The translations under genes were made by a program, and so were the position numbers. Positions 39,083-59,689 of a stretch of 64,000 nucleotides of DNA are shown piece after piece (the first letter of the stretch is position 1; each line of letters begins with the position of its first letter). The stretch comes from Phage NC-B: the sequence record MK310183; one strand, 5' to 3'. The notes beneath the pieces were generated by a model. The model was given only the letters and a program-made list of their open reading frames with translations. It was not told the origin of the DNA and made no database searches.

Positions 39083-40930
39083 TTAGTGAGTGTGATTCCA
39101 GTTTAACCCAATCTTACAGTCAGATGCCAGAGGGCATTCCATTTTGAGATACTCACCTGCTTTACGAACACACTCTTCAGTGAGGGTACGAAGTTTGTTA
39201 ACATCGTCACGATGTACAGTGAACTGGCCTTCATCATGCATGTCAATAACCTTCGCACAACGAACACCATCACGCTCAATCCATTTATTAAGGAATAGCA
39301 TTGCATACTTCATAACAATCGCCCCAGCGCTCTGTAAGAGAGTATTTAAGGCTTTATGAACCATAACCTTTCCAGTTGCATCTCTTCTCATTGTAATACG
39401 ACGTCCATCCACACCGTAGATGTATCCACTTTGTGCTTTCTCTGTCATACGTTCAATAAGAATTGCAATACAAGGATTCTCTGCTAAGAATCTTGCCCTC
39501 ATGACAGCTCCTTCATCAGAGCCACCGCCTACGATGCTTCCTAACTTAGCGTCACCAGCTCCGTAGTTGAATGCGTAGATAAATGTTTTAGCATTATCAC
39601 GAGTAGGAAGGCCAGCAAGTTTTTGGTTATGTGAGTGAATATCTCCTTCTAAAAGAATATCTCTGTACATAACAGCAGAAGCTAGACCGCGTTCAGCTTC
39701 TCGTTTCTTAGCCGGGTTGTTTTCTCGCTCTGCTTCAGCGAGCATCTCACGACATTCTTTAATAAGGTAGTGAGCTAGCATCCTCAGCTCAAGACCAGAG
39801 CCATCGTAACCTAAGAAGATTTCACGACCAGCAGGAACATAGAACTTATAGGCACCTACAGGTTTGTCTTTCTTGCCCGGTTTTCCCACTTCGTAGATAA
39901 TGTTAGTACCCTTTCGTACGTAACACCCATCAGGGATATGGTTGGTAATGATGAAAGGATGGTTATGACTATCGTCTGAGGAATAGTCAGATTGAAAAAG
40001 ACTGCGGCACTCGTGACCAAACAAACCGCGAGAAGGAATATTAACAACAATGCGATGTTTAAAACGAAATGTCGGAGTAGCGCAGCTATTAGCTTCGGCG
40101 GACAACTTACCATCTTTACGTTCCTTGTCGATAAGCCCGCTAATCAAACCTAGCCTGTGAGCCGCTACAACGCGTCTCTTAAGCAAACTTCCTACACCCC
40201 CTAGCTCACCCCCAAGCCCTTCTTCAAGAGTCTCCTCAAGGTTTGTAGGGGCTGTAGGCCACTTGTTTGATGTAGCCAAAGCTTTTTTGATTTCATCAAA
40301 GGTTACAGGCTTCTTCCTATTAGGGTTAAGACCTAAACCGCTGACATAAGCTTTCATATAATTGACAGTGTGATAACGGAAGTGCTTATCCAAAAACCTT
40401 CGGATATCAGCATCTATCATCTCTGCTGTCTGTTTCTCTTTAGCGTTACCTCGAATCCAAGCAGAATACCATGCAGAGTATGTACCATACTTCTTCATAG
40501 CTTTACGAATTTCAAAAGTATTCCAAGGTTTCTTAGAATAATTCCACTCTGGAGGTATAAAACCTTCATCCATCAAGGCTTCTTTAATACGTGCATCTTT
40601 TGATGGGTCAAAATCTACATACTCAACGCAAGTAAACGCCCCACCGATATCTTCTCTTTTAAGACCAACCCTATCGCAATAGAGCTGAGGCCACTTCTGT
40701 AAAGCACCTGACTTCTTAAAAGGCTTAGCATAAGTTGAACCATCCACCCGCATTTTAGGGAGGAGAGGAATCAGTTCTTTATCAATATTGACAATAATCT
40801 CTTTGAGAAGGTGAACAAACCACCGAGCGTTTCTTCTGTTGAAGTTGACTCCATGCTTCGCTTGTTTTGAGATTATATCAGCGACTGTCATCTCCGTTAT
40901 GAAAGGTAACTTATCAGGGTTATCCATCAC
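39083..40930 (-). CDS. DNA polymerase, family A (polymerase domain only)
   Basis: motif A DGSGLELRMLAHY, motif B RDNAKTFIYAFNYGAG, motif C VIDMHDE; no exonuclease motifs in this ORF. Confidence 0.85.
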   Translation of the reverse strand: MMDNPDKLPFITEMTVADIISKQAKHGVNFNRRNARWFVHLLKEIIVNIDKELIPLLPKMRVDGSTYAKPFKKSGALQKWPQLYCDRVGLKREDIGGAFTCVEYVDFDPSKDARIKEALMDEGFIPPEWNYSKKPWNTFEIRKAMKKYGTYSAWYSAWIRGNAKEKQTAEMIDADIRRFLDKHFRYHTVNYMKAYVSGLGLNPNRKKPVTFDEIKKALATSNKWPTAPTNLEETLEEGLGGELGGVGSLLKRRVVAAHRLGLISGLIDKERKDGKLSAEANSCATPTFRFKHRIVVNIPSRGLFGHECRSLFQSDYSSDDSHNHPFIITNHIPDGCYVRKGTNIIYEVGKPGKKDKPVGAYKFYVPAGREIFLGYDGSGLELRMLAHYLIKECREMLAEAERENNPAKKREAERGLASAVMYRDILLEGDIHSHNQKLAGLPTRDNAKTFIYAFNYGAGDAKLGSIVGGGSDEGAVMRARFLAENPCIAILIERMTEKAQSGYIYGVDGRRITMRRDATGKVMVHKALNTLLQSAGAIVMKYAMLFLNKWIERDGVRCAKVIDMHDEGQFTVHRDDVNKLRTLTEECVRKAGEYLKMECPLASDCKIGLNWNHTH

Positions 40931-43145: not shown

Positions 43146-43466
43146 TCAGATTGATTTGTCCTTATGTAAACGGTATACTTCAGTAGCCATACAAGCTATA
43201 CGCTCGTCATGAGGAAGATGCATACCAGTGGAGCCATTCCATCCATTGAACTCTGAATCAAAGAATCCGATAGGCTCAGGATACATCTCTTGCAAAGTGG
43301 TTAAGTCATCGGCCACTTGTTGCCATTTGTCATCAGACCAGATTGGGTCATCCAACCAATAATACAAATAGGAGTGGATAAGCATCTGTGTTCTGTATCG
43401 TTTAATCACTTCAGCAGGACTAATCTCGTTTCCGTTACCAGTCCTAAATGTATTATCGTTGATCAT
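43146..43466 (-). CDS. hypothetical protein
   Basis: 106 aa ORF. Confidence 0.5.
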   Translation of the reverse strand: MINDNTFRTGNGNEISPAEVIKRYRTQMLIHSYLYYWLDDPIWSDDKWQQVADDLTTLQEMYPEPIGFFDSEFNGWNGSTGMHLPHDERIACMATEVYRLHKDKSI

Positions 43467-43775
43467 TTAGATAACCTTGTGCTCGTAGATGCTGGGGTTG
43501 AAATAATGCAACCAGTTTATATATTGTTTCTGTTCAAGGTAGTGTCTGCAATCATGACAAAAAGCATGACCCAAACCTGTTTCCTCGTTCAGCTTGAAGT
43601 TGATAAGAAGCTTCTGCTTTTGACAGAAGCTACATGCTTTAGTGGGCTTCACGTAGTGCATCCCATGAGATTGGGAAAAGTTTACGAAGCTCTTCATCAA
43701 CAGTTGATGCGAACACTCGTACTTCATACTGAGCATGGTCTGACAGCCGCTGACGACATAACTCTGACCAACCAT
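43467..43775 (-). CDS. hypothetical Zn-ribbon protein (start uncertain)
   Basis: Cys pairs CSFC...CHDC; 5' part overlaps the 3' end of thyX, true start probably internal (ATG at 43697 or 43661). Confidence 0.4.
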   Translation of the reverse strand: MVGQSYVVSGCQTMLSMKYECSHQLLMKSFVNFSQSHGMHYVKPTKACSFCQKQKLLINFKLNEETGLGHAFCHDCRHYLEQKQYINWLHYFNPSIYEHKVI

Positions 43776-44289
43776 ACAAAGAGCCTGTCCACACCCATTC
43801 AGTGATCATGCCCTGAGGCAATACAAATCGAGCTTGCTCTGGAGCAATAAACTTAATTAATTCATCATACGACTCAAGAGCTGTTTCATATGCCCGATTA
43901 ATCAGAACTAGTGCAGAGTTTTGTGCTCCTGTGGTGAGGAGATTCCCCGCACCTGCATGGAGGTCCGAAGGTCTTTCAAAAATCTCTTTAGGGATGAAGA
44001 GTTCAACTGCTCCATCTTTATACCGCCGGGACATTTCGTTCCACGAGAATCCAACTTGATGCTTGCCCAGCTGTCTCGCAATTGCGATTGGCGCTTTGCA
44101 TCGGAAGCTAATTGTCGGATGACGGAATGGTGTGACATGCTTTTCTCTGGCAAGGAACTTGATAAGGCGTTCATCTCGTTCATTTAACTCTCCTTCACGA
44201 GTAACCCCAAAAGAAACTCGAGCTGCATTAACAACAGATTTATCAGAACCCATTGCTTCGATTAGTGTTGCTTGTAATTGTTCATTCAT
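43639..44289 (-). CDS. thyX: flavin-dependent thymidylate synthase ThyX-like (divergent)
   Basis: AARVSFG..., HVTPFRHP, RLSDHAQYEV match ThyX; canonical RHR motif replaced by KHQ (LGKHQVGFSWNEMSRRY). Confidence 0.75.
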   Translation of the reverse strand: MNEQLQATLIEAMGSDKSVVNAARVSFGVTREGELNERDERLIKFLAREKHVTPFRHPTISFRCKAPIAIARQLGKHQVGFSWNEMSRRYKDGAVELFIPKEIFERPSDLHAGAGNLLTTGAQNSALVLINRAYETALESYDELIKFIAPEQARFVLPQGMITEWVWTGSLYGWSELCRQRLSDHAQYEVRVFASTVDEELRKLFPISWDALREAH

Positions 44290-44303: not shown

Positions 44304-44519
44304 TTAATAATGAATCTTTTTATAAACCATATTGCTTCCGCCTTCTGTTTCAATCCCTTTCTGAATTGTAATCTTAGAAGCGCCAGTGTTAGCAATTTTC
44401 AAAGCTCGCTTAAATCTGCGAGCCTCTTTCCGTGTGGAGTATGTTGAGAAGCTAGGGATTGTACTATCAAAATTAAACCACTTAACTACCCAAAAAGTAA
44501 TCCAAGGTTTCTTTGCCAT
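44304..44519 (-). CDS. small basic protein, TRKEAR-motif family (paralog 3)
   Basis: 71 aa; shares W.V..W...F.TRKEAR..K and C-terminal Tyr with 46386..46598 and 46598..46813. Confidence 0.5.
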   Translation of the reverse strand: MAKKPWITFWVVKWFNFDSTIPSFSTYSTRKEARRFKRALKIANTGASKITIQKGIETEGGSNMVYKKIHY

Positions 44520-44520
44520 A

Positions 44521-44796
44521 TTACTTACCTTTCAGAGCCGTGTCTAAAAATGCACGGAGATTAGATTCAGTTTGCATACCTGACAAGCTGTAGTGAGCAC
44601 CACTATTCTTATCAGGGACTACAAAGGCTGGGATACTGCGAACACCGTATTCAATAGCTCGCTCTCGACCATCACCTTCAGAGATGTTTACCTCTTCAAC
44701 TTCAACGTTGTAATCAGCCACAACCTTCTTAAACACAGGAGCCATAGCTGCACACGGAGCACATGAATTACTATAAAACTTAATTACTTTACTCAT
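44521..44796 (-). CDS. thioredoxin-like protein
   Basis: VIKFYSNSCAPCAAMAP (CxxC), YGVRSIPAFVV, NLRAFLDTAL; start set to ATG 44796 (AAGGA SD). Confidence 0.7.
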   Translation of the reverse strand: MSKVIKFYSNSCAPCAAMAPVFKKVVADYNVEVEEVNISEGDGRERAIEYGVRSIPAFVVPDKNSGAHYSLSGMQTESNLRAFLDTALKGK

Positions 44797-44986
44797 TCTA
44801 TTCCTTGTTAATAAACAGGTTGATATGACGCTGGGTAGCAGGAACAACAATAAAAGATTTATACTGACCTTTTGCTAAGTCATGAGCAATCTTCTTTGTC
44901 TGACCAAGACCCATCACACAGCCACTAACGATAATGGCATGTGCTTGTAATTCTTCAGGTAGGTTTAGTTTCACTCTTTGGATTCC

Positions 44987-45172
44987 TTATAGCATACAAA
45001 GAATAATAACAAGAGGTAGTGTTATAGCAAAATGTACCAGAACAACACTACCTAGCTTGATAGCTTTAACATCCTCTTCTGCTGGGTTTTCTTTAATTGC
45101 TAAATTTCGAGCTTTATATATAACAGTACCAACTATTAACGACCACACGGCCCACACAATCAGTGAAATCAT
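44987..45172 (-). CDS. small two-TM membrane protein (paralog 1)
   Basis: MISLIVWAVWSLIVGTVIY...KENP...LGSVVLVHFAITLPLVIIL. Confidence 0.5.
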   Translation of the reverse strand: MISLIVWAVWSLIVGTVIYKARNLAIKENPAEEDVKAIKLGSVVLVHFAITLPLVIILCML

Positions 45173-45181
45173 GTCAAACCC

Positions 45182-45361
45182 TTATGCAGTCAACAGGTGG
45201 AGAAGGAAAGGAATGACAACAGAGAAAACTACCAGAGCAATGCTACCATGTTTAATAGGTTTGGCATCATTTGGATTTTCTTTAAGCATCTGTTTCTGAG
45301 CCAGATAAACGATACCACCAACAAGAATTGCCCATACAGACCACACGATTGCTGAAAACAT
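45182..45361 (-). CDS. small two-TM membrane protein (paralog 2)
   Basis: MFSAIVWSVWAILVGGIVY...KENP...HGSIALVVFSVVIPFLLHL; start set to ATG 45361. Confidence 0.5.
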   Translation of the reverse strand: MFSAIVWSVWAILVGGIVYLAQKQMLKENPNDAKPIKHGSIALVVFSVVIPFLLHLLTA

Positions 45362-45424
45362 ATTCATATCCTTATAAAGAAGTTCGCCCCACCTCTTAAA
45401 CAAAGAGACAGGGCGGAGGTTTGA

Positions 45425-46000
45425 TTAGTAAGACACGTCACCACTGGAGTGGGACATGTTGCTCTTGACGAAGTAACAGAACTTGCCAAGACCTTCATTA
45501 ATTTCTTGAAGCATACTCTGATCAACTGGATAGGTGCACAAGTCTGAATCAAACTCGTCCATCTTCTCAATGATACACATAAGAGTCATGCACATGTCGG
45601 AAAGCATACCGTCCATGTCGAGATCAGCGTTACCTTCTCGGAACCAAGCATGACCTAAATAGTTACTAGCAGTAGCATCCACTTTAACACAGTGAAAGCG
45701 CATACGCTCTGCTATTCGGTCGCCTGCCTCACGAGCATAATCTTCTAGTTCATCGAACATACCATGAACACCTTGGAAACCAGCTCCAGAGACGTTCCAG
45801 TGGTAGTTCTTTGCTTTGATGTGTAGAAGTTCAAGGTTAGCTTGCACACCACACAAGATGTGTTCTAAGCTGTTACCACTAATCAGTTTATTCATTCCCT
45901 CAAGACGAGAAATAGAAGAGTCAGTAGTAGAGAATGGGTTGCTAGGACCCACTCTTGTTAGCTCTGGTAAATCGAAGACATTATTATGCATTAGGTGCAT
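45425..46000 (-). CDS. dps: Dps-like ferritin-fold protein
   Basis: LELLHIKAKNYHWNVSGAGFQGVHGMFDELEDYAREAGDRIAERMR closely matches the Dps ferroxidase-centre region (H, H, D, E positions conserved). Confidence 0.8.
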   Translation of the reverse strand: MHLMHNNVFDLPELTRVGPSNPFSTTDSSISRLEGMNKLISGNSLEHILCGVQANLELLHIKAKNYHWNVSGAGFQGVHGMFDELEDYAREAGDRIAERMRFHCVKVDATASNYLGHAWFREGNADLDMDGMLSDMCMTLMCIIEKMDEFDSDLCTYPVDQSMLQEINEGLGKFCYFVKSNMSHSSGDVSY

Positions 46001-46813: not shown

Positions 46814-47347
46814 TTAGACACCCTTAGAAGCAACTACACCTTCGCTACCATTATAGCGACCCTTAACTGCATAGGAATGTTCACCAGCATGTGAATGCTC
46901 AAACATCACCATCTGACCAACACGCATACCAGCACGAACTCGTAAGCTGTGGTGCTTGGTTACGTTATGAAATTCGAATGTCAGCTTGCTGTTGTTAAAC
47001 CCAGCGTCTGCCCAACCAGCATGTAAATGGTTCAGGCCACAACGAGCCATCGAAGATCGCAAAACAAACAAACTGGAGATGTTATCTGGAAGGTTGAACT
47101 CTTCCATTGAGTGAGCCAAGAAGAATTGTCCCGGAGTGATGATAATACCATCTTCAGGGATTTTTACTTCTTTCCACTTGAGGTTTTCTTTAGCATCAAT
47201 GTCAACAATACCATCAGCCTGTTCTTCAACAAGGATAGTATCACCAATGCGGATATCCACGCTAGCAGCGTTAACATATTTATGCTCCGCATCTAAAAAG
47301 CCATTATCAATAACGCTGTGTAATTCTTGAGAACCTAAAAGACTCAT
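46814..47347 (-). CDS. dcd: dCTP deaminase (Dcd/dUTPase superfamily)
   Basis: AASVDIRIGD, RSSMARCGLNHLHAGWADAGF, LRVRAGMRVGQMVMFE match Dcd. Confidence 0.8.
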   Translation of the reverse strand: MSLLGSQELHSVIDNGFLDAEHKYVNAASVDIRIGDTILVEEQADGIVDIDAKENLKWKEVKIPEDGIIITPGQFFLAHSMEEFNLPDNISSLFVLRSSMARCGLNHLHAGWADAGFNNSKLTFEFHNVTKHHSLRVRAGMRVGQMVMFEHSHAGEHSYAVKGRYNGSEGVVASKGV

Positions 47348-48791: not shown

Positions 48792-49340
48792 CTACATTTT
48801 CCAGTTGAGAGATGGGGGATTTCTATAATCAAATCCTGCCATTTGGCAAAGACACATGTAAACCTTAACTGTTAAGTTAACGTCTTGCTCACAATACGTG
48901 AACATGTCTTCAGTGAAAGCATCCCATGCTTCTTCCTGTTCACCATAGTCACCCTTCAGCTCTCCCAGAAATTCGCCCCATTGCTTGAGGCCATGACCGC
49001 GAGGGCCATGTCTAGGGTCGCCTTTGGGGTATTCTGGACTGTCACCAATACGGTCAGGCTTGAGGTATCGACTCAGGCACAGGGTATCAAAGACATTAAA
49101 ACGAAAAGGTATCACATGAGAGTAGAATTTAAAGAGAGCACATAAATCATAATCAATGATGTTATGTCCAATCACAACATCAGCCTCTTTGAGTTTATAA
49201 AGAGCATCCTCAATCTCATGTGGTCTAAACCCCCAACGCTCTCCTGAGAGAACATCAAAAATCCAAACACACCAGATATCAGAGACTTCTTCATACAACC
49301 CGTTGGCTTCTATGTCAAAAGCGTAAAGTTTCTTATCCAT
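48792..49340 (-). CDS. 3'-5' exonuclease (DnaQ/DEDD, Pol I proofreading type), separate gene
   Basis: Exo I FDIEANGL, Exo [10 protein letters not shown], Exo [11 protein letters not shown]; start set to ATG 49340. Confidence 0.8.
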
Positions 49341-49776
49341 AAGATTTTTCCAGATACCGCAAGGCGGAGCGTATAATCTCAAGGTCATCTTTTAAATAAC
49401 CTATCCCTGAATTGCACGATCTGCATAGGATTCCTCTAACAACACCTGTTTCGTGACAATGGTCCACACAAGCAATTTTACTTATGTTTTTCATTTCATC
49501 CGAGATGCTTAACTCTTTGCCGCAAATAGCACAAGAGTTATCCTGAGAACCCAATAGAGCTTTGACGTCATCAAGACTTAAACCATATTGCTTCAGTGAG
49601 TTTTTCCTAGAAGCTTTTCGGTGAATCTCTTTAACACCCTCTATATTGTGATATCTGAACATAGTCCTGTCATTCATGCAGACTTTACAAGAAGACCTAT
49701 ACCTGCCAGACTCAGACCTCTTATAGAAAGCGTCTAGGGGTTTTTCAACCCCACACTTACTACAGGTTTTTACCAA
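49333..49776 (-). CDS. endonuclease VII-like Holliday-junction resolvase
   Basis: [24 protein letters not shown] matches the T4 endo VII core; N-terminal zinc-ribbon cysteines. Confidence 0.8.
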
Positions 49777-51560
49777 GGCCGTGCCTCCCCATCTTGTGTT
49801 AGAAGGGAAGCTGCATCTTCTCCGTTGGTGACTGTAAACGGATTATCTTCATCAACTTCATGATCTTCTCGTTCCACAAGACGACCTGTTTCGTTGATGT
49901 ATTTGGTATAGCAAACCCCTGTCTGTCCATAGTTACGCTCTTTGAGCAGACGTATGATTGACAAGTTTTTACCTAACCCATCCGCTTGCTTATTACGTTC
50001 GAAACCGATAATACATTGACACCAGCGCATTAATGAACGTGAGCCAGTAAACTGTACTTCTTTAACCTGACCACCTTCTTCGTGAGGGGCACCGCCCGCC
50101 GGAGCATTCAAGTGAGATAACACAAAAGCAGTGAAGTCTAATTCCTTACACATACCAGCAAGCTCTGAAGCAATCTTACTGATTTCTGTATTCACTTCGG
50201 ATGGAGTTAAGTGAGATACCAATGCAGTGATGTTATCAAGGATGATAAACTTACACTGATTCTCAACTACCCAAAAGCGAATACACTGCTTAATGTCTTC
50301 CCACTCATTCTGTCCAAAGTTGTCGTATAAGAAAAACTTATCAGCGTATCGAAGTGCTTCATCTCGTAGCTGACTTTCTTCATACTCAACATCTGGTCGG
50401 TGAAATGGAACAGATGCAGACTTACCAGCAATGTTCTTAACAGACATGCCTACCTTCTCTTCCAAGAAGAAGCCACCACCATTAAAACCATGCTCAAGGC
50501 AAAGCCATGCTACCAGTTCGTGTGCGATTAAGGTTTTACCTGAACCAACACCACCTCCGATTGCAACCATCTCTCCCCAACGAATACCAAAGGTCATGTC
50601 ATTGAGAGTTTTCCACGGATAAGGGATACCCCATTCCGCTTTCTTCAGAGCGTCTTCAAGGCAGTCAAAAACTGTAACAGCTCCAGCAGGAGATTCCCGC
50701 TTAGCTGAATACTTCAGATTATTGAAAAGCTCTTGACCTCTCCCTGCCAGTAACATGTCGTTTGCATCTTTGATTTCCTTTTCCTGTCCGTTGTAAGTAA
50801 ACGTACCTTTTGGAATTCTTGCAAACTTGACATGTGGGTACAGAGAACGACCTTTAGTCAATGCAATCTCACCTGCATCATCATTGTCCATGCAGAGTAC
50901 AATCTCCTCGAAACCGTTAATAAAATCACGATTTCTTGATAACACAGAAGAGATTGAACCTGCACCGAACGGAAGAGAGACACAAGCAGGTTTGATATTA
51001 GTTGCGTTTGTGAACGCAGTAAGTACGTGGAATCCAGACATACAAGAGAGTGGGTCTTCAAAGATGAAGAGCTTCTTATTGTAAACATCGCCACGTTGTG
51101 CTTGAGCCATACCAAATAAGTCGGCTTCTTTCACATTACCTACATAATAGAACTTCTTGCTGTCTAGAAGTTTTACTTCATATCCAACAATATTCCCATC
51201 ACGTTCACGAGGGAAGAAGTAGCTGTCAGGAGTTTGACCGTCTGTTTGACTTAAACCAATACGGCATCCATAACGTTCAGATACAGCTTTAGGAATTAAG
51301 CGACGAGTCAATTCTCCCTGAGGAAGCTCTAAGCAATCGTCTAAGACTTCTCGGAGTTCTTCAGGGGACAGCTCTTTCTTTTCATTAGGAGTGGGCGTCG
51401 TTCCTTTCTCGAAGATTTCATACGCACCACATCTGTTACATGAACCCCACTCCTCACCGGACTCTTCATTTCGGAAGAGAATCATGTGATTGCGGGTCTT
51501 ATCACGACCATGAGAGATACACTCTTTACAGCCCGTGTCTCCCAAAATGATCTTTGACAT
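49770..51560 (-). CDS. DNA primase/helicase (T7 gp4-like)
   Basis: N-terminal zinc ribbon CKECISHG...CNRCGAY; helicase Walker A GGGVGSGKT, Walker B FIILDNIT. Confidence 0.85.
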   Translation of the reverse strand: MSKIILGDTGCKECISHGRDKTRNHMILFRNEESGEEWGSCNRCGAYEIFEKGTTPTPNEKKELSPEELREVLDDCLELPQGELTRRLIPKAVSERYGCRIGLSQTDGQTPDSYFFPRERDGNIVGYEVKLLDSKKFYYVGNVKEADLFGMAQAQRGDVYNKKLFIFEDPLSCMSGFHVLTAFTNATNIKPACVSLPFGAGSISSVLSRNRDFINGFEEIVLCMDNDDAGEIALTKGRSLYPHVKFARIPKGTFTYNGQEKEIKDANDMLLAGRGQELFNNLKYSAKRESPAGAVTVFDCLEDALKKAEWGIPYPWKTLNDMTFGIRWGEMVAIGGGVGSGKTLIAHELVAWLCLEHGFNGGGFFLEEKVGMSVKNIAGKSASVPFHRPDVEYEESQLRDEALRYADKFFLYDNFGQNEWEDIKQCIRFWVVENQCKFIILDNITALVSHLTPSEVNTEISKIASELAGMCKELDFTAFVLSHLNAPAGGAPHEEGGQVKEVQFTGSRSLMRWCQCIIGFERNKQADGLGKNLSIIRLLKERNYGQTGVCYTKYINETGRLVEREDHEVDEDNPFTVTNGEDAASLLTQDGEARPW

Positions 51561-51595: not shown

Positions 51596-51802
51596 TTAGT
51601 AAAACGATCGTATTTCTTCCCACACATCATCTTGCAAGTTTCTAAAACCCTGCAAGGTTTGCTTTGTTCTGTGAATAAATTCTTCAGAGTGCTTATCAGG
51701 TGTGAGCATACTGACAAACTTTTCATAGCGATTAATCTTCCACCGCATCTTCAAGTAGTCAGATTCCAGCTTTCTTAACTTCTGCCTGTCAGTTACTGTC
51801 AT
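51596..51802 (-). CDS. hypothetical protein
   Basis: ORF 51596..51898 trimmed to ATG 51802 to limit overlap with upstream gene. Confidence 0.4.
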   Translation of the reverse strand: MTVTDRQKLRKLESDYLKMRWKINRYEKFVSMLTPDKHSEEFIHRTKQTLQGFRNLQDDVWEEIRSFY

Positions 51803-52220
51803 CCTTCTCACCTGCCAGATATGCTGTCCAGTCACCAGATTCAACCAGAACATCTTGTTCTTCGTCGATGTGATAAATCCACGCTTCCACAGTTTCACCG
51901 CTGTCCAATAATACTGGAATCAGCGTACGCTTGTAAAAGGTGTATGGGTTATCATTACCACGATGACCTTCCAGACCGTCATACGGACCTTCCAGACCAG
52001 CTTGGGTTGTTTCAAAGACCTCTACACGAACAGGCTTACCGTTGCTGTCATGCTCCAGAGATACACTTGGGAAGTATGCTGTGCAATACTGATACAGGTT
52101 ACAGTTGTTTACTGTCCACCCTTCACCAATAGACACACCACCTGCGCGAGCATTGATAGCGTGGTTGTGTTGACCTTTACGAAGAGAACCATACGTTGCA
52201 ACTAATACTTTATCAGACAT
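51789..52220 (-). CDS. gamma-glutamyl cyclotransferase-like (AIG2/GGCT family) protein
   Basis: N-terminal VATYGSLRKGQHNH (YGSL motif). Confidence 0.7.
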   Translation of the reverse strand: MSDKVLVATYGSLRKGQHNHAINARAGGVSIGEGWTVNNCNLYQYCTAYFPSVSLEHDSNGKPVRVEVFETTQAGLEGPYDGLEGHRGNDNPYTFYKRTLIPVLLDSGETVEAWIYHIDEEQDVLVESGDWTAYLAGEKDDSN

Positions 52221-52224
52221 TACA

Positions 52225-52422
52225 TTACCTTTTGTTTAAAATTTCTTTTGTACAAGAAGTCCCGTTACACACGAGAACTGTTTGAGTTATAGAATCGACA
52301 ACTGTTACATGGCTGCCGCATTGAGTTATGATTTGACCTCTCCCTGAATCTTTAGAGATGCATTCATCAGCGGCGATTGCTGACACACTGAATAAGGAGA
52401 GGAAAAATAGAATCTTTTTCAT
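52225..52422 (-). CDS. small secreted Cys-containing protein
   Basis: signal peptide MKKILFFLSLFSVSAIAADE; 5 Cys in mature part. Confidence 0.45.
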   Translation of the reverse strand: MKKILFFLSLFSVSAIAADECISKDSGRGQIITQCGSHVTVVDSITQTVLVCNGTSCTKEILNKR

Positions 52423-52428
52423 TGCTGC

Positions 52429-52845
52429 TTACCAATCATGTTGGAAACCAGAATATCCAGAGAAGATGATTGATCGGATTGGCTTTTCAGGGAATTCTTC
52501 AAAACATCCCTTAATGGCTTTCTTGGTTTCATCAGACATTGACTCTTTTTCGCCAAACCAGTATTCTTCAAAAATATCAGAGAAGATATAAGTTCGGTAT
52601 CTTTCCAAGTCATAAAAACCTTCCACTGCACCTGTAACAGCTCGACTGATCGTACTAGAAGCTACAGGAAATAAATCACTGTGCTCCATAAATAAACACC
52701 AACGATCAAAGAGTGGAATCTCTTCATCTTTCAGAAGACTCTCTAATTCTTCCTTTGCCTCTTTCTTATTCTTCTCAAAGAGGTTTTTGGAATATTCTAC
52801 ATCTAAGATACGACTCTTAAACATATCCAGTTTATTGTCAACCAT
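52429..52845 (-). CDS. hypothetical protein
   Basis: 138 aa ORF. Confidence 0.5.
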   Translation of the reverse strand: MVDNKLDMFKSRILDVEYSKNLFEKNKKEAKEELESLLKDEEIPLFDRWCLFMEHSDLFPVASSTISRAVTGAVEGFYDLERYRTYIFSDIFEEYWFGEKESMSDETKKAIKGCFEEFPEKPIRSIIFSGYSGFQHDW

Positions 52846-52901
52846 TTACAACCTCCAGTTAAATTCGAACTAGCCTCCTCTTTCGAAGAGGCTAAAGCAA
52901 A

Positions 52902-53087
52902 TTATTCTACTTCGAAGTGTTTGATCACACCAGTTAGTACATCAGATTGGAATGTACCCACTAGCTCTGCGCCTCGGAAGAAATTGACATTTGTTCCTAG
53001 TGTTTCAAAGCGCTCTGCTTGAATGTCCAGAGATTGAATATTCCCTTCTGATGTTACTGTACGAAACATGATTGTATATTTATTCAT
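52902..53087 (-). CDS. hypothetical protein
   Basis: 61 aa ORF. Confidence 0.4.
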   Translation of the reverse strand: MNKYTIMFRTVTSEGNIQSLDIQAERFETLGTNVNFFRGAELVGTFQSDVLTGVIKHFEVE

Positions 53088-53326
53088 AGACTTGTTACTC
53101 CCTTATCTGCTTGTGCAATAGCAAAAATTCGCTCTACACATTCCATTGAGTCTTTATCACCACGCTTTAAGAAGGTGACGATAGCAGAGAATTGATTACC
53201 AATCATTCTCTTATTGGTGATACCAAACTCTTCACAGAGTTGGTTAATCATTTTACGAGAGCCTACAATCAGAGGCTCTTTTTCTTCAGTCATTCCACGG
53301 CTGATCAAATCTTCGATAGACAACAT
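53084..53326 (-). CDS. hypothetical protein
   Basis: 80 aa ORF; ATGA overlap with downstream gene. Confidence 0.45.
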   Translation of the reverse strand: MLSIEDLISRGMTEEKEPLIVGSRKMINQLCEEFGITNKRMIGNQFSAIVTFLKRGDKDSMECVERIFAIAQADKGVTSL

Positions 53327-53352
53327 TACAAATTCCTTTTTGTTTAATTTAA

Positions 53353-54588
53353 TTATAGAGTTACTGCTACTTCGCTACCTTCAACATTGACAGACTCTAA
53401 CTTGCGAGGGTTATGAATCTGGACTGGATTGACCGGAACGTTCCAACCACTGCGGTAGAAGTTACGACCATCACAGAACAGGATGACATTGGCAGACATT
53501 GCATTCGGTTGCAGGTTGTTGTGGACATGACGGATATTTGCAATCCAGTAGCCACGAGACAAAGTGTAGCCAGTAGGTGCATTACGAATAGTTTGAGTAT
53601 TCATCTGACCTTCCAGTTGCATTTCTTCAGGAACCATATCAACTGAATCAATCGGCTGTGCTACTTGTCCTTCCAGTGCAAAGTTTTCATCATCAGCACT
53701 TTCACTGTCATCAACCAACTCACCATCTCCGTCTTCAATCGGAGTCTGGTAAACCACTTTATACTGAGGAGTATAGAGAGGGTTCTGAGCTTTAACAAAC
53801 TCAAGAATGTTATGACGGTAGGTATCCAGAGTTGTACCAGTCAGGCCCGGTGCTGTATTAACTTCCAGTACCCACGCTTCTTGACCTTTGGTGATAATAT
53901 CAACTGCACCGAAATCCAGACCCATTGATTCAACAGCTTTCACTGCATTGATCAGAGAGGCGTCATTCGGAGCATCTGTGAAGGAGCTTGAGTAAACCCA
54001 GCCAGTGTGGTGATTACGAATATCTTCACGATAGTTAGGGTCTTCGCGATAACCATTGCGACGAATCTTCTTCTGAACATAGGTGATTACACCTTTGAAC
54101 ACATGGACACGCCACTCACGACGTGGGCCTTGAATGCCTTTAGTGTACAGTTCAGCTCGACCAAGACCATCACCCGGTTCTACAACAACAATGCCCGAAC
54201 CAGAGTGACCAGTCAGCTCATGGCGCTCATACACAATATTACCAGTGTTTGACCACTCTTGAGCAGTCTCTTGAGCATCTGTGTATTCCACAGTTTTAAC
54301 ACCTGCTTGGTCCATCACGCTGAAAGCACGACGTTTGTTCGCTGCCATATGTAAGGCTGCGGTACGGTTAAGGACGGTTGAAGAACCAAAGAATGATTCA
54401 GGATAGCGACGGTTCCCGTAGTTAACAACCACATCACCTTCACGAGAACGCCAGCGGCTATTCTCTGAAAGAAGACCCATCACGTTAGCATTGATGCGTT
54501 CATCACGGATAGTATCACTGATAGCAGATACTAGAGCGTTAACAGAATCAGACGGGCCATACGGAAGAACACGGATACGAGTAGTCAT
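53353..54588 (-). CDS. ATP-grasp ligase (RimK/glutathione-synthetase-like)
   Basis: C-terminal GLDFGAVDIITKGQEAWVLEVNTAPGLTG matches the ATP-grasp Mg/ATP-binding signature; HSGSGIVVVEPG. Confidence 0.7.
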   Translation of the reverse strand: MTTRIRVLPYGPSDSVNALVSAISDTIRDERINANVMGLLSENSRWRSREGDVVVNYGNRRYPESFFGSSTVLNRTAALHMAANKRRAFSVMDQAGVKTVEYTDAQETAQEWSNTGNIVYERHELTGHSGSGIVVVEPGDGLGRAELYTKGIQGPRREWRVHVFKGVITYVQKKIRRNGYREDPNYREDIRNHHTGWVYSSSFTDAPNDASLINAVKAVESMGLDFGAVDIITKGQEAWVLEVNTAPGLTGTTLDTYRHNILEFVKAQNPLYTPQYKVVYQTPIEDGDGELVDDSESADDENFALEGQVAQPIDSVDMVPEEMQLEGQMNTQTIRNAPTGYTLSRGYWIANIRHVHNNLQPNAMSANVILFCDGRNFYRSGWNVPVNPVQIHNPRKLESVNVEGSEVAVTL

Positions 54589-54591
54589 TTT

Positions 54592-54813
54592 TTAGATACC
54601 TTTTAGTTTAAGAATTTCGTTACGACAGGATTGAATTTTAGCTTCGATTGCCCAATACTCAGCGAACATTTCGTCTTCTTGGGCATCGCTTGGAGAGTCG
54701 ATTAAGTTAAAAGCAAACGGATACAGCTTTCGCTGCTCCGTTACCAGTTGTTGAAGTCGGAGTTGTTGATACTCCAGCATTGTCAGGTGAGGCTTAGCTC
54801 CCCTGTTTGACAT
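54592..54813 (-). CDS. hypothetical protein
   Basis: ORF 54592..54822 trimmed to ATG 54813. Confidence 0.4.
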   Translation of the reverse strand: MSNRGAKPHLTMLEYQQLRLQQLVTEQRKLYPFAFNLIDSPSDAQEDEMFAEYWAIEAKIQSCRNEILKLKGI

Positions 54814-55027
54814 GAGGCTCAACTTTAATCCCCTTCATTTTAACATAGTCAGCCAACACGTTATTAATAACGGTTGGAAAAGGGATTTCTACTGGAGAGT
54901 CAACCAGCTTCCCAATACCTTCTTGCATCCACTTCTGGATTGCTCGGAGGTTATCACATCCTGTGCTTGTCATCGGAATACGGCGGGTAGTTACCACGTT
55001 ATCCAACATCAGTTTACGAACTTCCAT
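54794..55027 (-). CDS. hypothetical protein
   Basis: 77 aa ORF. Confidence 0.45.
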   Translation of the reverse strand: MEVRKLMLDNVVTTRRIPMTSTGCDNLRAIQKWMQEGIGKLVDSPVEIPFPTVINNVLADYVKMKGIKVEPHVKQGS

Positions 55028-55038
55028 AACTATACCTC

Positions 55039-57072
55039 TTAGTGTTTACCTTTACAGTAATCTGAATTACAGATCACCCTGTTTTCTTTGTTCAGTGAGC
55101 AAGTTTCTGCATCACGCCACGGAATTTGTTTATAACAGACTGCACAAAACCCAATTGAAGTCCAGAGGGCTTTTGTAAACTCAGCTGTTCGTTGTCCATC
55201 GTAACTGACAACTGTTTTTCGGAGAGAGGTTGACTTTTCTGGAAATGTCTCCGCTTTCTCAGCGGGTACCTCCTTTGGGGCATTCTTTGGACCATAAACA
55301 GAGATGGCATAGGTATCACCACCACGTTTTTCCAAATACGAATTAGGAACATCTGCAAGTGTGATATCCCCTGAACGTTTTGCTGAGCTAACCATTACAA
55401 TCATACGGCTAAGCATACGTTCATCAACACGAACAGCTACTTCAGGACGACGTGGGTTGGTTGTGTCCACTGCTTTAGTCCAAATATAACCCTCAGACAG
55501 CGTAACATTCTTTACTTTGTCTTTGATTTCTTTGGAGCAGATATAACAAACGTCTTCACCACGAAGTTTACTCATTTCGTTGTCAAACTCGAAATCAGTC
55601 TTGACTTCACCACAGATAGCACATACACCCAAAGGCACATCTTCTTCCTCTTCAGAGGTTTTAGATAACGCTTCGAAGCATTCTGGATGCCAGTATGCCT
55701 GATAAGCAAACACAGCCTTACGAGCATCTTTCCAGTCAATGTGCTTATCACAACCACCACAGTCACCATGAGAGTGAGACTCCCAGAACTTACGAGTGAC
55801 TTCTACACCATTCTTAGTGATGAAGGAGTCCTCTGCATCAAAAGGGATATCATCATCAAAATCAGCAGTAGTGCTTTGAGGCTCCTTATCTGTAGCATCA
55901 ACAAACAGCCCTGAAGTTAGTACGAGGCGAATCATACTGTCCACTTCGGAGATACAAGCAATCGTCCCGCGATATACTACCTTTGGGTTTTCAAGAGCCT
56001 TAAGATATTCATCTTTGGCTACGTTGTGAACATCCCCTTCGACATACTCTTGGGCTTTATCATCGTAGATGTAACCAACCATCTTACCACGATCTGTGTT
56101 GTTATAAGCATGGAACTCGTGAGGAATAATATCCACACGACCATCACGACGATAAGGAAGACCACGATCGGCAGCCAGTTTGTTCTGGTCTTCAATCGCT
56201 TTACGACGACGAATGTCTCCGCTTGTCACGCCGGGCTTGTCGTCTTTGTTTCCGTAAATGTCGCTTGTGCTGCTGCTTGATTTGTTTGTCTGTTGGTTCT
56301 GATATAGAGAGGAGTTCGAGTAATAGCCGCCCCAGCGACTCGTTATCGTAAAAACCGGAAGCTTGTGCTCCACCTCTTGAACCAGAGTCATACGACTGTT
56401 AGACACATCAAAGATATACTCAGTTCCCACTTTACACTCGAAGTGGTCATTGATACGGTTCTTATGGGACTTAGAACGCTCTAAAATCCACATAAGCATA
56501 GCTTCTTCAGAAGCCCCAAACCAATCTAAACCACAACGGGCTAGGTGGAAAGGACGCTCATCATTACGGATAATGTGAAGCGTGTTGTCTTTAGCATCAT
56601 GCCAAATCAAAGTGAATGCACCATCCAGTTTTTGGATAGTCTCTGCTGCTCCAATGGTGTTAATTGAGTGGCAGATGTTTTCACTATCAACTTCGAAACG
56701 TTTACTGTCAGGAAGGAGATCTTGATCTAACAGGGTTCCATTATGAACCAGAGTGATATCACCGTGAGTAAATGGGTGAGCGTTTCGAGCATTGACAGCC
56801 CCACGAGTGGCATGTCGGCTATGACCAACAATCCACGAAGGAGGAACTACGTAGTTCGTAAGTCCTTTGGTAATATTCTTATATTCTGTCTGGAGCATAA
56901 AAGCGTAAGAAGGAAGAGCTTCTTTGTAAGAGAAGACTTGCTTTTCACCTTTACGCTGACCAAACACACCAGTTGAGTGCTGTCCACGGAAAACACCAGC
57001 ATACAGAAGTTGGTTGAAAATATCCAAATCTGTTGAGGTCATGTTGCCGCCAGCTAATACGATACCACAAAT
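55039..57072 (-). CDS. class-II glutamine amidotransferase (Ntn-hydrolase) domain protein with Cys-rich C-terminal extension; predicted non-AUG (ATT) start
   Basis: GVFRGQHSTGVF, GHSRHATRGAVNARNAHPF, LVHNGTL match the GlmS/PurF-type GATase domain; in-frame codons just upstream of the ATG read K-I-C-G-I-V-L-A-G-G-N, i.e. the conserved (M)CGIV N-terminus, bounded by a stop two codons further up. Confidence 0.75.
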   Translation of the reverse strand: MCGIVLAGGNMTSTDLDIFNQLLYAGVFRGQHSTGVFGQRKGEKQVFSYKEALPSYAFMLQTEYKNITKGLTNYVVPPSWIVGHSRHATRGAVNARNAHPFTHGDITLVHNGTLLDQDLLPDSKRFEVDSENICHSINTIGAAETIQKLDGAFTLIWHDAKDNTLHIIRNDERPFHLARCGLDWFGASEEAMLMWILERSKSHKNRINDHFECKVGTEYIFDVSNSRMTLVQEVEHKLPVFTITSRWGGYYSNSSLYQNQQTNKSSSSTSDIYGNKDDKPGVTSGDIRRRKAIEDQNKLAADRGLPYRRDGRVDIIPHEFHAYNNTDRGKMVGYIYDDKAQEYVEGDVHNVAKDEYLKALENPKVVYRGTIACISEVDSMIRLVLTSGLFVDATDKEPQSTTADFDDDIPFDAEDSFITKNGVEVTRKFWESHSHGDCGGCDKHIDWKDARKAVFAYQAYWHPECFEALSKTSEEEEDVPLGVCAICGEVKTDFEFDNEMSKLRGEDVCYICSKEIKDKVKNVTLSEGYIWTKAVDTTNPRRPEVAVRVDERMLSRMIVMVSSAKRSGDITLADVPNSYLEKRGGDTYAISVYGPKNAPKEVPAEKAETFPEKSTSLRKTVVSYDGQRTAEFTKALWTSIGFCAVCYKQIPWRDAETCSLNKENRVICNSDYCKGKH

Positions 57073-57149
57073 TTTCTAATCCACCTGAAGGGTAAACCCT
57101 TTCATCTAATTAACCTTTAAATGCGCCCTTTATCAGAGCGCCCATTGTG

Positions 57150-58250
57150 TTACAGCAGTCGTTCTAACTGCATTTCCAGATGATCTGGAATATAACCAGT
57201 GACATTATCATCACTACTGCCTGATTCACGCATCAATGCAAACATGTGACGAATCTCACCAACCGTTGCGGTTCGTGTATTCTCAATCTGGTTAGAGTAA
57301 TGAGATAAGATTTCTTCATAGACACGGTTAGCATTACCACGAACATATCCCAAGAAACCATAGAAGTCATTCATGTCACGAAGATTAATCAAGATTTCTC
57401 CATCAGAACCTGTCTGATGTACACGAACTCGACCGACCAAAGTTACAGATCGCTCACGACAGAACAGAATATCTCGAGCAAGACGATACCCTTCAGTGAG
57501 ATCACTATCTCTTGGGGTGTAGTCTAGAGGTAGATGTTGAATCATAGGAGCGAAGCGCAGCTCATTCAACTTCTCAACATAAGCTTCATTGTCTAAATCT
57601 GCATATTCAACAGCCAGTTTCTTGAGAACCAAGAAACGATTGACCAGATTTAGCAGCTGACTCTTTTTCCACTTCGGCTCTGAGATACGGAACTCAACAG
57701 AACCAAACTGAGAGAGAGGTAACAGATTAAGGGAGGTGTACTTGTCCCAGCTATTAACAAGAGTACGGAAGAAATCTTCCCCATCTCGGTTGAACGCTGA
57801 TGAAGCATTCATAACTTGAGCTTGAACAACAGCAAAAGCTGGGCAGAAGTTACTACGGTAACGATGATATCCAGAACATTTGAACATCATCTTTTCATAG
57901 AACGTCCACCCAAGAATAACTTTCTTAAGGATATTACTATCAGCGTCCCGCATATCCATATGAACGTGAGTGGAGCAGCGCCAAGTTCCCTCGGCTCCAG
58001 AATCCTGTACCGCTTCACTCAGATTGTTAATAGCACGAAGTAATTCTTCACCGTTGTAAGGTCGTGAACAAACTAACTCACAACCATCACGAAGAGAGCC
58101 GTCTTCAGTACAAACCCACATATCGACGTCAATGTCAGTCGTACCTTCAACCTCTAACTCAATACCAACACCACACTGAAAGGCAATACTTGGATGCGGT
58201 TCAGATAAGCGAGGGTTACGGTATCCAAAAACTTGTGCTACGGTTGTCAT
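57150..58250 (-). CDS. amidoligase-like protein (glutamine-synthetase-like fold)
   Basis: GVGIELEVEG and STHVHMD motifs; sits next to the GATase and near a GGCT gene, the neighbourhood I recall being described for this family. Confidence 0.6.
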   Translation of the reverse strand: MTTVAQVFGYRNPRLSEPHPSIAFQCGVGIELEVEGTTDIDVDMWVCTEDGSLRDGCELVCSRPYNGEELLRAINNLSEAVQDSGAEGTWRCSTHVHMDMRDADSNILKKVILGWTFYEKMMFKCSGYHRYRSNFCPAFAVVQAQVMNASSAFNRDGEDFFRTLVNSWDKYTSLNLLPLSQFGSVEFRISEPKWKKSQLLNLVNRFLVLKKLAVEYADLDNEAYVEKLNELRFAPMIQHLPLDYTPRDSDLTEGYRLARDILFCRERSVTLVGRVRVHQTGSDGEILINLRDMNDFYGFLGYVRGNANRVYEEILSHYSNQIENTRTATVGEIRHMFALMRESGSSDDNVTGYIPDHLEMQLERLL

Positions 58251-58873
58251 AATGATTCCACCAACTCTACATTATATGATGACAGGTCTGAAGAAATATG
58301 CTTGAACTTCTCCAGAAGGTTTAAAGATTGACGACCATTGTCGCCATAACCAGCTTCAAGAAGCACGTTTCCAACGTAAGCCCCTTTGTAATAAACTTTT
58401 CCATCGACAGGATTGATATAGATGAAACGAGTAACCAACCCTTCAAACTCTGGATTAAACAGGTTGTACACCAAATCACCCGGAATCGAACGTCCGAGAG
58501 AAGGTGGAGCACCACGAAGTTTATTCCCCATCAAGCCTTTAGCTCGCTGACGAACAGGGTTAATATGGGTCCAGCTCACCATGTTATTACCATGCTGAAG
58601 GTATCCTACATCTGGAGACTCCAGAATGAGGTTGTGATCAAACACTGGGATATTACTAACAATCTGACGTTCAAACTGACCTTCAGAGTTTTTAGTCCAG
58701 CGTTCCGCCTCAAACACTAAAGACATTTCAGCGTCGTGTGAGTAGTCGTCGATATCAAAGTTACCTTGCTGACGAACATCAAGCACATATAGAGGGAGGT
58801 TTTTACCATCAGGTGATCGCTGAGCAATCCATGTTCCACAATAATAGTGTTGAAAATCTCTTAACAGGCTCAC
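58247..58873 (-). CDS. hypothetical protein
   Basis: 208 aa ORF, ATGA overlap. Confidence 0.5.
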   Translation of the reverse strand: MSLLRDFQHYYCGTWIAQRSPDGKNLPLYVLDVRQQGNFDIDDYSHDAEMSLVFEAERWTKNSEGQFERQIVSNIPVFDHNLILESPDVGYLQHGNNMVSWTHINPVRQRAKGLMGNKLRGAPPSLGRSIPGDLVYNLFNPEFEGLVTRFIYINPVDGKVYYKGAYVGNVLLEAGYGDNGRQSLNLLEKFKHISSDLSSYNVELVESL

Positions 58874-58882
58874 AATATCACC

Positions 58883-59689
58883 TTATACAATCTGGAGTTT
58901 AGAGGAGAATTTATCCGCTTCTTTAACATCGTTACTGTTGATGATGTTGTGAAGCTTTTCAATTGGAAGGCGAGAGTGAAGTGACATCAATACTTCTATA
59001 TCACAACCCTGAACAACCTTATCCACTTGCTCATAAACAAACTTGCGAGTGGACTTATCACCAATCCAGAAGTTAGAAAGAGAACGATATTCAATACCGT
59101 AATCTTTGTAGCGAATGGCAGAAGCCTTTCCGTACAACTCTTTACGACGAGTGTCTTTATCCATGATCACAGCTGGCAAGGACAGGAAGTAATCACACAA
59201 CACACCCAACATCATTTGAGTTTGTCGAGTAATCTCTAAAGTCCCGGAGACACCAAGGTGCACATGACCCCCAGCAGTACGCAAACCTTTATCAGTTGCG
59301 ACCGGTGAAGGGTTCTTTTGTCCAGTGAAGGCATTGAAATCAGGAGTACAACCAAATACAAAGGCTGACGGATGGAAAGATTCAAGCTCTTCTGAAGTGA
59401 ACACATGAGAGCTAATCCCAAGTGCTGCCTCCATGCCACGTTCATTGAGAACTTTGTTAGTCAGATCAATACCGCGCTGAATGTTATCATCAAACGCTTC
59501 AAACCCTTTCTGTGGGTTAATATCAAACTCGGCCAGAACGTTGTCTTCTTGAAGACGAACATCAGGAGCCAGATCAATTTTATTATCTTTAGAACAGCCC
59601 AGCTTACCAGCCACAGAGGTGATAATACCGGAAGCAGTACGAACAAACATTTCAGGGTCAGAGCCAATAAGGAAAGCGCGCTTAGTCAT
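58883..59689 (-). CDS. hypothetical protein (possible second ligase-fold protein)
   Basis: AFLIGSDPEMFV and GGHVHLGV resemble the acidic-strand plus HVH pattern of 57150..58250; start set to ATG 59689. Confidence 0.45.
   Translation of the reverse strand: MTKRAFLIGSDPEMFVRTASGIITSVAGKLGCSKDNKIDLAPDVRLQEDNVLAEFDINPQKGFEAFDDNIQRGIDLTNKVLNERGMEAALGISSHVFTSEELESFHPSAFVFGCTPDFNAFTGQKNPSPVATDKGLRTAGGHVHLGVSGTLEITRQTQMMLGVLCDYFLSLPAVIMDKDTRRKELYGKASAIRYKDYGIEYRSLSNFWIGDKSTRKFVYEQVDKVVQGCDIEVLMSLHSRLPIEKLHNIINSNDVKEADKFSSKLQIV

Follow-up and report, generated by a model that had tools for sequence, protein, structure and literature searches.

Why does an Escherichia coli phage with a T7-like replisome encode a thioredoxin of its own? 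The question is raised by one small gene of Phage NC-B (sequence record MK310183), of which we analyzed a stretch of 64,000 nt, called the window in the following:

44521..44796, minus strand: mini-thioredoxin gene (Pfam, PHROG, similarity to E. coli TrxA, AlphaFold/Foldseek and substitution rates)

The protein has the thioredoxin fold and an intact active site, while its gene is under purifying selection, is expressed in a relative and is associated with genes of nucleotide metabolism. It is a core middle gene of the nucleotide-metabolism/replication module of phiEco32-like podophages (C3 morphotype). Our answer to the question is a tentative one, i.e., the reading we favour is that of a redox-active thioredoxin of the nucleotide-supply module which is reduced by host thioredoxin reductase (TrxB) and mainly feeds the class Ia ribonucleotide reductase of the host.

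The open reading frame (ORF) is a real, expressed and selected gene, expression having been seen in the relative SU10. It runs on the minus strand from an ATG at 44796 to a TAA at 44523..44521, is preceded by an AAGGA ribosome-binding site and encodes a product of 91 amino acids (aa), MSKVIKFYSNSCAPCAAMAPVFKKVVADYNVEVEEVNISEGDGRERAIEYGVRSIPAFVVPDKNSGAHYSLSGMQTESNLRAFLDTALKGK. Two small ORFs flank it directly:

44798..44974, minus strand: upstream 58-aa ORF (phrog_19504, no assigned function), whose stop lies 1 nt before the thioredoxin ATG
44304..44519, minus strand: downstream 71-aa ORF (phrog_4939, no assigned function), between the thioredoxin gene and the thymidylate synthase gene thyX

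Since the downstream ORF likewise begins 1 nt past the thioredoxin stop, the spacings on both sides indicate that the three ORFs are translationally coupled and form a tight operon. The 71-aa ORF is missing from the corresponding position in SU10-type relatives.

With regard to the phage itself, the 9 kb around the thioredoxin gene match Escherichia phages 4E8 and AnnaHegner_Bas87 (Bas87) at 96.6% identity and about 20 further phiEco32-like E. coli phages at 90-97%, several of which are recorded as Kuravirus. The gene order of the window agrees with these records as well. The window is thus most of the genome of a C3-morphotype E. coli podophage of known type (Kuravirus). The same gene is found at the same place of the same genome type as SU10 CDS65 and as Bas87_0059 ('thioredoxin domain'), and the phiEco32 'thiol-disulphide isomerase and thioredoxin' (ABY52866.1, via the GAP52 record) is the same gene, too. 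Orthologues are 73-99% identical, and the records of phiEco32, SU10 and Bas87 already name the product a thioredoxin; RefSeq kuraviruses also carry the 'thioredoxin domain' annotation.

Compared to its orthologues from three other Gordonclarkvirinae phages, the gene shows a ratio of nonsynonymous to synonymous substitution rates (dN/dS) of 0.05-0.21 with synonymous sites near saturation. That is, we are dealing with a selected gene and not with a chance ORF, and it is conserved across Gordonclarkvirinae. The SU10 orthologue (about 79% identical) was seen by mass spectrometry with a coverage of 52.8%. The respective sample was a lysate that had only been precipitated with polyethylene glycol and held early enzymes, too, such that the match reflects expression rather than packaging into the virion. 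For the same reason, a role as virion protein or assembly factor, as suggested by the SU10 'virion' proteome, was dropped.

These data also bear on the idea that the gene is a decaying or non-functional remnant of a lost ribonucleotide-reductase module. Such a remnant would fit the lack of NrdD/NrdG in kuraviruses, given that the nearest thioredoxin-bearing relatives have kept both. Its low dN/dS, the intact active site, the detection of the SU10 protein and the conservation of the gene across Gordonclarkvirinae speak against this, and we regard a remnant as highly improbable, i.e., as essentially refuted by the selection and expression data.

The family assignment is consistent over all methods used. 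The protein matches Pfam Thioredoxin (PF00085) with 47.3 bits against a cut-off of 23.5 bits (E = 2e-12) as well as PHROG 22 ('thioredoxin domain'), shares 29% of its residues with TrxA of E. coli (E = 7e-14) and reaches a best phmmer E-value of 8e-9 against 149 thioredoxin-fold chains of the PDB. Its AlphaFold model, computed with 75 homologues as input, has a predicted local distance difference test score (pLDDT) of 95.8 and superposes on E. coli TrxA with a template modelling (TM) score of about 0.8 and an rmsd (root-mean-square deviation) of about 1.9 Å. Top Foldseek matches are the thioredoxins of E. coli, S. aureus and others with rmsd values of 1.7-2.1 Å. The model shows the topology beta-alpha-beta-alpha-beta-beta-alpha, i.e., the core fold is present while the N-terminal beta1/alpha1 of classical thioredoxins is absent, which makes the label 'minimal thioredoxin' accurate. 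Two sites are of interest for catalysis:

44752..44763, minus strand: codons of the CAPC redox motif (Cys12, Ala13, Pro14, Cys15), read directly from the sequence
44632..44634, minus strand: codon of Pro55, the equivalent of cis-Pro76 of TrxA (RSIPAF vs. RGIPTL of E. coli TrxA)

What is shared with E. coli TrxA is thus the core fold, the CxPC site, the cis-Pro loop with its R and I as well as the equivalent of G92. On the other hand, about 20 residues (beta1/alpha1) are absent, the active site reads SCAPC (residues 11-15) instead of WCGPC such that the first Cys is preceded by Ser and not by the canonical Trp, Lys is found where TrxA has its buried Asp26, and Gly74 and Lys90 are changed to Ser and Leu, respectively. 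Membership among the glutaredoxins or NrdH proteins is not indicated, as the motif is CAPC instead of one of the CPYC or CVQC type and neither Grx nor NrdH occurs among the top 50 sequence or fold matches. A periplasmic Dsb/TraF-like role, which a Pfam TraF match had brought up, was dropped, since there is no signal peptide, the first beta-strand lies right at the start and the folds matched best are cytoplasmic thioredoxins.

An exhaustive homologue search over 1.8 billion representatives returned 1,494 matches. Many of the best are 81-100 aa long and likewise start at the first strand before the CxxC motif; this mini-thioredoxin family is visible only with the exhaustive search, while a word-indexed one gave just 9 close relatives. 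In an alignment of 75 mini-thioredoxins (81-100 aa), C12 and C15 do not vary at all, while conservation exceeds 90% for P14, the cis-Pro and G73 (the equivalent of TrxA G92). The residue ahead of the first Cys is Trp in the family consensus and Ser or Gln in kuraviruses. Outside Gordonclarkvirinae, the nearest relatives among GenBank phages come from Cronobacter phage GAP52 and Proteus phage Privateer (38%) and from T5-like phages (Demerecviridae). The mini-thioredoxins of the latter, the nearest ones from non-C3 phages, are about 40% identical over some 63 residues (two-thirds of the protein) and N-terminally truncated, too. T5-like phages have a different, intrinsically processive polymerase and reductases of their own; the neighbourhood of the thioredoxin gene in the T5-like phage Shivani is uninformative. 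Altogether, a catalytically competent mini-thioredoxin, as predicted from motif and model, is the best explanation for the protein.

Which pathway such a protein would serve can be approached via its neighbours. The thioredoxin gene sits between a Dps/ferritin-like gene and thyX, and the same arm holds a dCTP deaminase gene besides the primase-helicase, exonuclease and polymerase genes listed further below:

43639..44289, minus strand: ThyX, flavin-dependent thymidylate synthase (Pfam Thy1, E = 1e-42)
45425..46000, minus strand: Dps/ferritin-like 'DNA-binding protein', a neighbour in all relatives that have the thioredoxin in the module
46814..47347, minus strand: dCTP deaminase (Pfam DCD, E = 6e-35)

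In several relatives, ThyX follows directly after the thioredoxin gene, and in SU10-type kuraviruses the two genes abut. No ribonucleotide reductase was found: tblastn with NrdA, NrdB, NrdD and NrdG queries from relatives gave no hit in the window or in the complete Bas87 genome (E > 0.2), and none is annotated there. With this, the initial annotation, i.e., a minimal thioredoxin with a CAPC site that lies in the replication and nucleotide-metabolism arm of a phage without visible ribonucleotide reductase, agrees with our results.

Reductases of the kind missing here are encoded by relatives. The co-occurrence of thioredoxin, polymerase and reductase was assembled from individual contigs and GenBank genomes; an IMG/VR scan with the polymerase profile yielded mostly marine T7-like polymerases matching the C-terminal half only, along with 4 loci of the split-polymerase clade (see below). 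The order Dps-Trx-ThyX is found in the window, in the SU10-type CHD5UKE1 and in the loci L094 (found via its thioredoxin, 49% identical) and L098 (polymerase 70% identical), with NrdD and NrdG coming next, ahead of the polymerase, in the latter two. GAP52 shows dCTP deaminase, thioredoxin, one further gene, Dps and NrdD, with NrdG at some distance, and Privateer combines the same cassette with T4-like NrdA and NrdB. Aeromonas phage APT65 agrees with the window phage in replisome and genome plan and shares the module of split polymerase, primase-helicase, Dps, ThyX and dCTP deaminase, but its sole family member (gene 34, CQAC motif, 76 aa, hidden Markov model (HMM) E = 2e-17) is an immediate neighbour of nrdA-nrdB and not of ThyX. 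T4 NrdC, the functional counterpart, is glutaredoxin-like, while the window protein is thioredoxin-like. Taken together, kuraviruses give the impression of a lineage without the reductases of its relatives, be it by loss or because they were never acquired, which nevertheless has the thioredoxin.

Several further observations concern the same neighbourhood. No other neighbour of the thioredoxin gene is as constant among the relatives as the Dps/ferritin-like gene; the product of the latter has an N-terminal extension of about 40 aa and is named inconsistently in public records ('DNA binding protein' or even 'integrase'). The Dps-like gene is separated from the thioredoxin operon by two small hydrophobic ORFs, which are tandem paralogues of phrog_9296 (44987..45172 and 45182..45403, both minus strand). 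The spot between the thioredoxin gene and ThyX, for which we also compared the loci L096, L001 and L097, varies: the window has the 71-aa ORF here, CHD5UKE1 has nothing, Bas87 has small ORFs together with an HNH endonuclease, and in EP335 an HNH endonuclease overlaps the 3' end of the thioredoxin gene. The spot looks like a homing-endonuclease hot spot. Finally, the more distant relative L100 (85-kb contig, polymerase 46% identical) encodes a 70-aa CGPC mini-redoxin at 7523..7735 (plus strand) right after a dUTPase/dCTP-deaminase gene and has no ribonucleotide reductase within 10 kb, which adds a second example of the module having a small redoxin without a reductase nearby.

In the mechanism that we tentatively favour, host TrxB and NADPH would keep the cytoplasmic phage thioredoxin reduced after infection, and electrons would pass via Cys12 and Cys15 to disulfide-using enzymes that feed DNA synthesis. 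As kuraviruses have no ribonucleotide reductase of their own, the likeliest client would be the class Ia reductase NrdAB of the host; in relatives, it would be the phage's own NrdAB. There are points that weigh against this. A class I or II reductase in the same genome is present in APT65 and Privateer but not in kuraviruses, and E. coli is already rich in TrxA and Grx1 for its NrdAB, such that the need for an extra reductant is not obvious. Deoxynucleoside monophosphate kinase (annotated in Bas87) and nucleases suggest salvage of host DNA over de novo reduction. Furthermore, the reductases most often found beside the thioredoxin in relatives are T4-type NrdD/NrdG, which, as far as is known, use formate and not thioredoxin. 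Finally, Ser for Trp before the first Cys as well as Lys for Asp26 may affect redox potential and recognition by TrxB.

The neighbourhood also allows for other clients. That is, the thioredoxin might provide local redox protection together with the Dps/ferritin-like protein and ThyX, or it might reduce further proteins of host or phage, e.g., methionine sulfoxide reductase (Msr), peroxiredoxins or 3'-phosphoadenosine 5'-phosphosulfate (PAPS) reductase in the course of host takeover. Flavin-dependent thymidylate synthases can leak H2O2 in air, the trio Dps-Trx-ThyX is kept in the four loci named above, and Dps is at most two genes away from the thioredoxin in GAP52 and Privateer. The redox site is intact, and a proteome-scale screen predicted binding of a phage thioredoxin to host MsrA. 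For Dps and ThyX, the case is one of gene neighbourhood, and we know of no biochemical link between thioredoxin and either protein; moreover, Dps and ThyX are retained in APT65 and L086, where the corresponding spot holds no thioredoxin. We consider this set of roles quite unlikely.

A different answer might follow from the replisome, which comprises the following genes:

39083..40930, minus strand: polymerase subunit of a split T7-type family A DNA polymerase (PDB, hhalign, AlphaFold and Foldseek)
48792..49388, minus strand: 3'-5' exonuclease subunit, a separate 198-aa protein (34% identity to T7 gp5 residues 5-178, E = 1e-15)
49770..51560, minus strand: T7 gp4-like primase-helicase (PDB 5ikn_D, E = 4e-34)

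The best PDB match of the polymerase is T7 gp5 (E = 4e-33 vs. 8e-10 for Klenow), and in hhalign the profile of 98 polymerase relatives is colinear with T7 gp5 residues 213-704 (E = 3e-56). Its AlphaFold model (pLDDT 93) leads to the same order in Foldseek, i.e., T7 gp5 with E = 6e-27 vs. Bst with 5e-17. The ORF covers the polymerase half only of the split enzyme and probably starts at the ATG one codon past the GTG, since its relatives are 614 aa long; the exonuclease subunit gives a weak Pfam DNA_pol_A_exo1 match in addition. Hence, the T7-like family A polymerase and replisome proposed in the initial annotation are confirmed by PDB, hhalign and Foldseek comparison as well as by the gp4-like primase-helicase. 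The C-terminus of the latter is acidic with a terminal Trp (...EDHEVDEDNPF...DGEARPW) and thereby recalls the acidic, Phe-terminated tail of T7 gp4, which binds the thioredoxin-binding domain of the T7 polymerase.

Split T7-like polymerases have been described before (PMC10201439). Here, the exonuclease and polymerase genes are separated by about 8 kb with over 15 genes, and all of the nucleotide-metabolism cassette lies in this interval. LUZ24-like phages show the identical split, annotated as 'DNA polymerase part I/II'. Polymerase residues ~138-238 (40217..40519, minus strand) form a confidently predicted helical elaboration after thumb helix H1 that exceeds its counterpart in T7 gp5 by about 70 residues and occurs in a shorter form across the clade; an extension at this post-H1 position has been reported for phiKMV-like polymerases (PMC10201439).

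For a role of thioredoxin in processivity, the thumb of the polymerase is of interest:

40598..40762, minus strand: thumb insertion, polymerase residues ~57-111 (delimited by AlphaFold helices H/H1 and aligned to the T7 thioredoxin-binding domain)

The model places the end of helix H at residue 56 and the start of H1 at 112, and the ~55-aa insertion in between is an ordered strand-helix-strand element; its length agrees with the criterion by which such domains are recognized, i.e., 50 or more inserted aa between the two helices at the tip of the thumb (PMC10201439). HMMER, BLASTP, MAFFT and hhalign each match the insertion to the T7 thioredoxin-binding domain (e.g., BLASTP aligns polymerase residues 54-135 with T7 283-362, E = 6e-5). 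About 22 residues of the T7 domain, which we take to span roughly residues 262-338, are absent in the form of three gaps distributed over the domain. The largest of these lies in the N-terminal half, where basic loop A is presumably located. The C-terminal half, in contrast, is strikingly similar (T7 REYVAGAPYTPVEHVVFNPS vs. REDIGGA-FTCVEYVDFDPS) and holds E94 and the strand G97-A-F-T100-C-V102-E103, i.e., the docking strand according to the T7 alignment.

Contact residues of the T7 complex were taken from molecular dynamics based on the crystal structure (PMC5984650), namely E319, P325, T327, V329, E330 and Y265 of the polymerase and K90, A93, I75, R73 and I72 of thioredoxin. On the polymerase side, E319, T327, V329 and E330 are identical in the phage (E94, T100, V102 and E103), P325 is replaced by Ala and Y265 is not alignable. 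On the thioredoxin side, R73 and I75 are kept as R52 and I54, while I72, G74 and K90 are changed to Val, Ser and Leu. By alignment, the insertion lends real support to a putative thioredoxin-docking surface on the polymerase and is the chief new argument for the polymerase idea of the initial annotation. As to polymerase C101, which takes the position of T7 P328, its role as a mixed-disulfide partner of thioredoxin was considered and dropped, as close relatives have Ala or Val here.

Given these residues, the phage thioredoxin might be a processivity subunit that docks on the thumb insertion, clamps the split polymerase on DNA and makes the phage independent of host trxA, possibly alongside a redox function. 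Polymerase type, colinear insertion and kept contacts on both sides all point in this direction, and the gp4-like helicase with its acidic, aromatic-ended tail suggests deep conservation of the T7 architecture. Resistance to T7 is known to arise by loss of trxA, which would supply the selective rationale. In addition, kuraviruses keep the thioredoxin despite having no reductase, and thioredoxin homologues were reported from every C3-morphotype phage compared in the Privateer paper (PMC7881722).

On the other hand, the docking strand does not follow the thioredoxin. The insertion, including G97, P98, F99, F107 and D108, is invariant or nearly so over the clade of 98 polymerases, and it is just as well conserved where thioredoxin is missing, i.e., in the LUZ24-like Pseudomonas phage fHoPae04, whose complete genome gave no thioredoxin in an HMM search with all filters off, and in L086 and L099 (metagenomic relatives of 90-120 kb), which show none within 10 kb of the polymerase. 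Conversely, the equivalent of E330 is Trp in GAP52 and Privateer, both with thioredoxin, as well as in APT65, whose thioredoxin-like gene adjoins nrdAB and stands outside the replication module. From both observations together it follows that the docking strand does not co-vary with a phage thioredoxin. If the strand binds any thioredoxin, host TrxA would be an equally good or better candidate. The missing ~22 residues of the T7 domain and the changes of G74 and of K90, the partner of E319, also speak against a processivity subunit, and so do the two invariant cysteines, as T7 requires no redox capacity of its thioredoxin. To our knowledge, no phage-encoded thioredoxin is established as a polymerase processivity factor.

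A direct comparison is offered by cyanophage Syn5, the only phage whose thioredoxin has been studied experimentally and which also combines a phage thioredoxin with a T7-like polymerase, such that the two competing hypotheses apply to both systems. The respective preprint (bioRxiv 10.1101/2025.10.05.680603; 2026), according to which the role of a phage-encoded thioredoxin had 'never been investigated' before, finds the Syn5 thioredoxin to be redox-active and to boost genome replication. In its AlphaFold 3 predictions, it is the host thioredoxin that docks on the T7-like polymerase as TrxA does on T7 gp5, while the phage thioredoxin does not. By analogy, host thioredoxin would be the likelier polymerase partner here, too. 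The systems differ in that Syn5 has its own ribonucleotide reductase as an obvious client, while the window phage has none.

We judge the processivity role plausible but less likely than the redox role. Its most specific form, i.e., a dedicated third subunit of the split T7-type polymerase that docks on the shortened domain and thereby escapes host resistance by trxA loss, appears rather unlikely. Of the two options left by the initial annotation, TrxA independence or a redox role, the redox alternative is currently the better supported one, because the docking strand is not tied to the thioredoxin, reductases are neighbours in relatives, the cysteines are invariant and Syn5 provides a precedent; the insertion may bind the phage thioredoxin, host TrxA or no thioredoxin at all. 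Compared to T7, the polymerase is split into exonuclease and polymerase subunits and its insertion is about 22 aa shorter, and where T7 uses TrxA encoded by the host, the putative partner in the window would be encoded by the phage.

Beside the thioredoxin locus, the window shows three further features. At 43146..43466 (minus strand), a stand-alone 106-aa protein consists of only the Ia domain (NAD+-binding, N-terminal) of NAD-dependent DNA ligase (Pfam Nlig-Ia, E = 4e-33). The Bas87 record calls it 'DNA ligase', for which it is far too short; it may modulate host LigA. The 102-aa ORF at 43467..43775 (minus strand) has about 137 nt in common with the 3' end of ThyX. Its long form is annotated in 4E8, but just the C-terminal 57 residues match phrog_15951, which makes an internal ATG the probable true start. 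Finally, an early cluster at 51789..60632 (minus strand) encodes Pfam GGACT/gamma-glutamyl cyclotransferase-like, ATP-grasp, class II glutamine amidotransferase and amidoligase proteins as well as a COOH-NH2 ligase (Bas87 annotation). The cluster is common to LUZ24-like Pseudomonas phages and APT65, and it is presumably a peptide- or metabolite-modifying system.

Both the thioredoxin gene and the polymerase-cofactor hypothesis are already published. The latter was put forward for C3 podophages in the Privateer paper of 2021 (PMC7881722), which proposed that the phage thioredoxin couples to the T7-like polymerase and raises its processivity. Our literature search found no experiment on the role of the kuravirus thioredoxin and nothing on trxA dependence of kuraviruses. 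What is added here is the residue-level case for a conserved docking strand and its independence from thioredoxin possession, the confirmed absence of reductases from kuraviruses and the link to reductase genes in relatives.

If the protein acts as a reductant only, it is an ordinary auxiliary metabolic gene product. If it were a polymerase subunit, it would show how phages internalise a host dependency factor and might offer a compact processive polymerase system; as a third subunit, it would be the first case of a thioredoxin from a phage with a demonstrated clamp function for a polymerase. In either case, kuraviruses are a clean and tractable test case in E. coli, since they combine a T7-type polymerase with docking strand and a phage thioredoxin without a confounding phage reductase.

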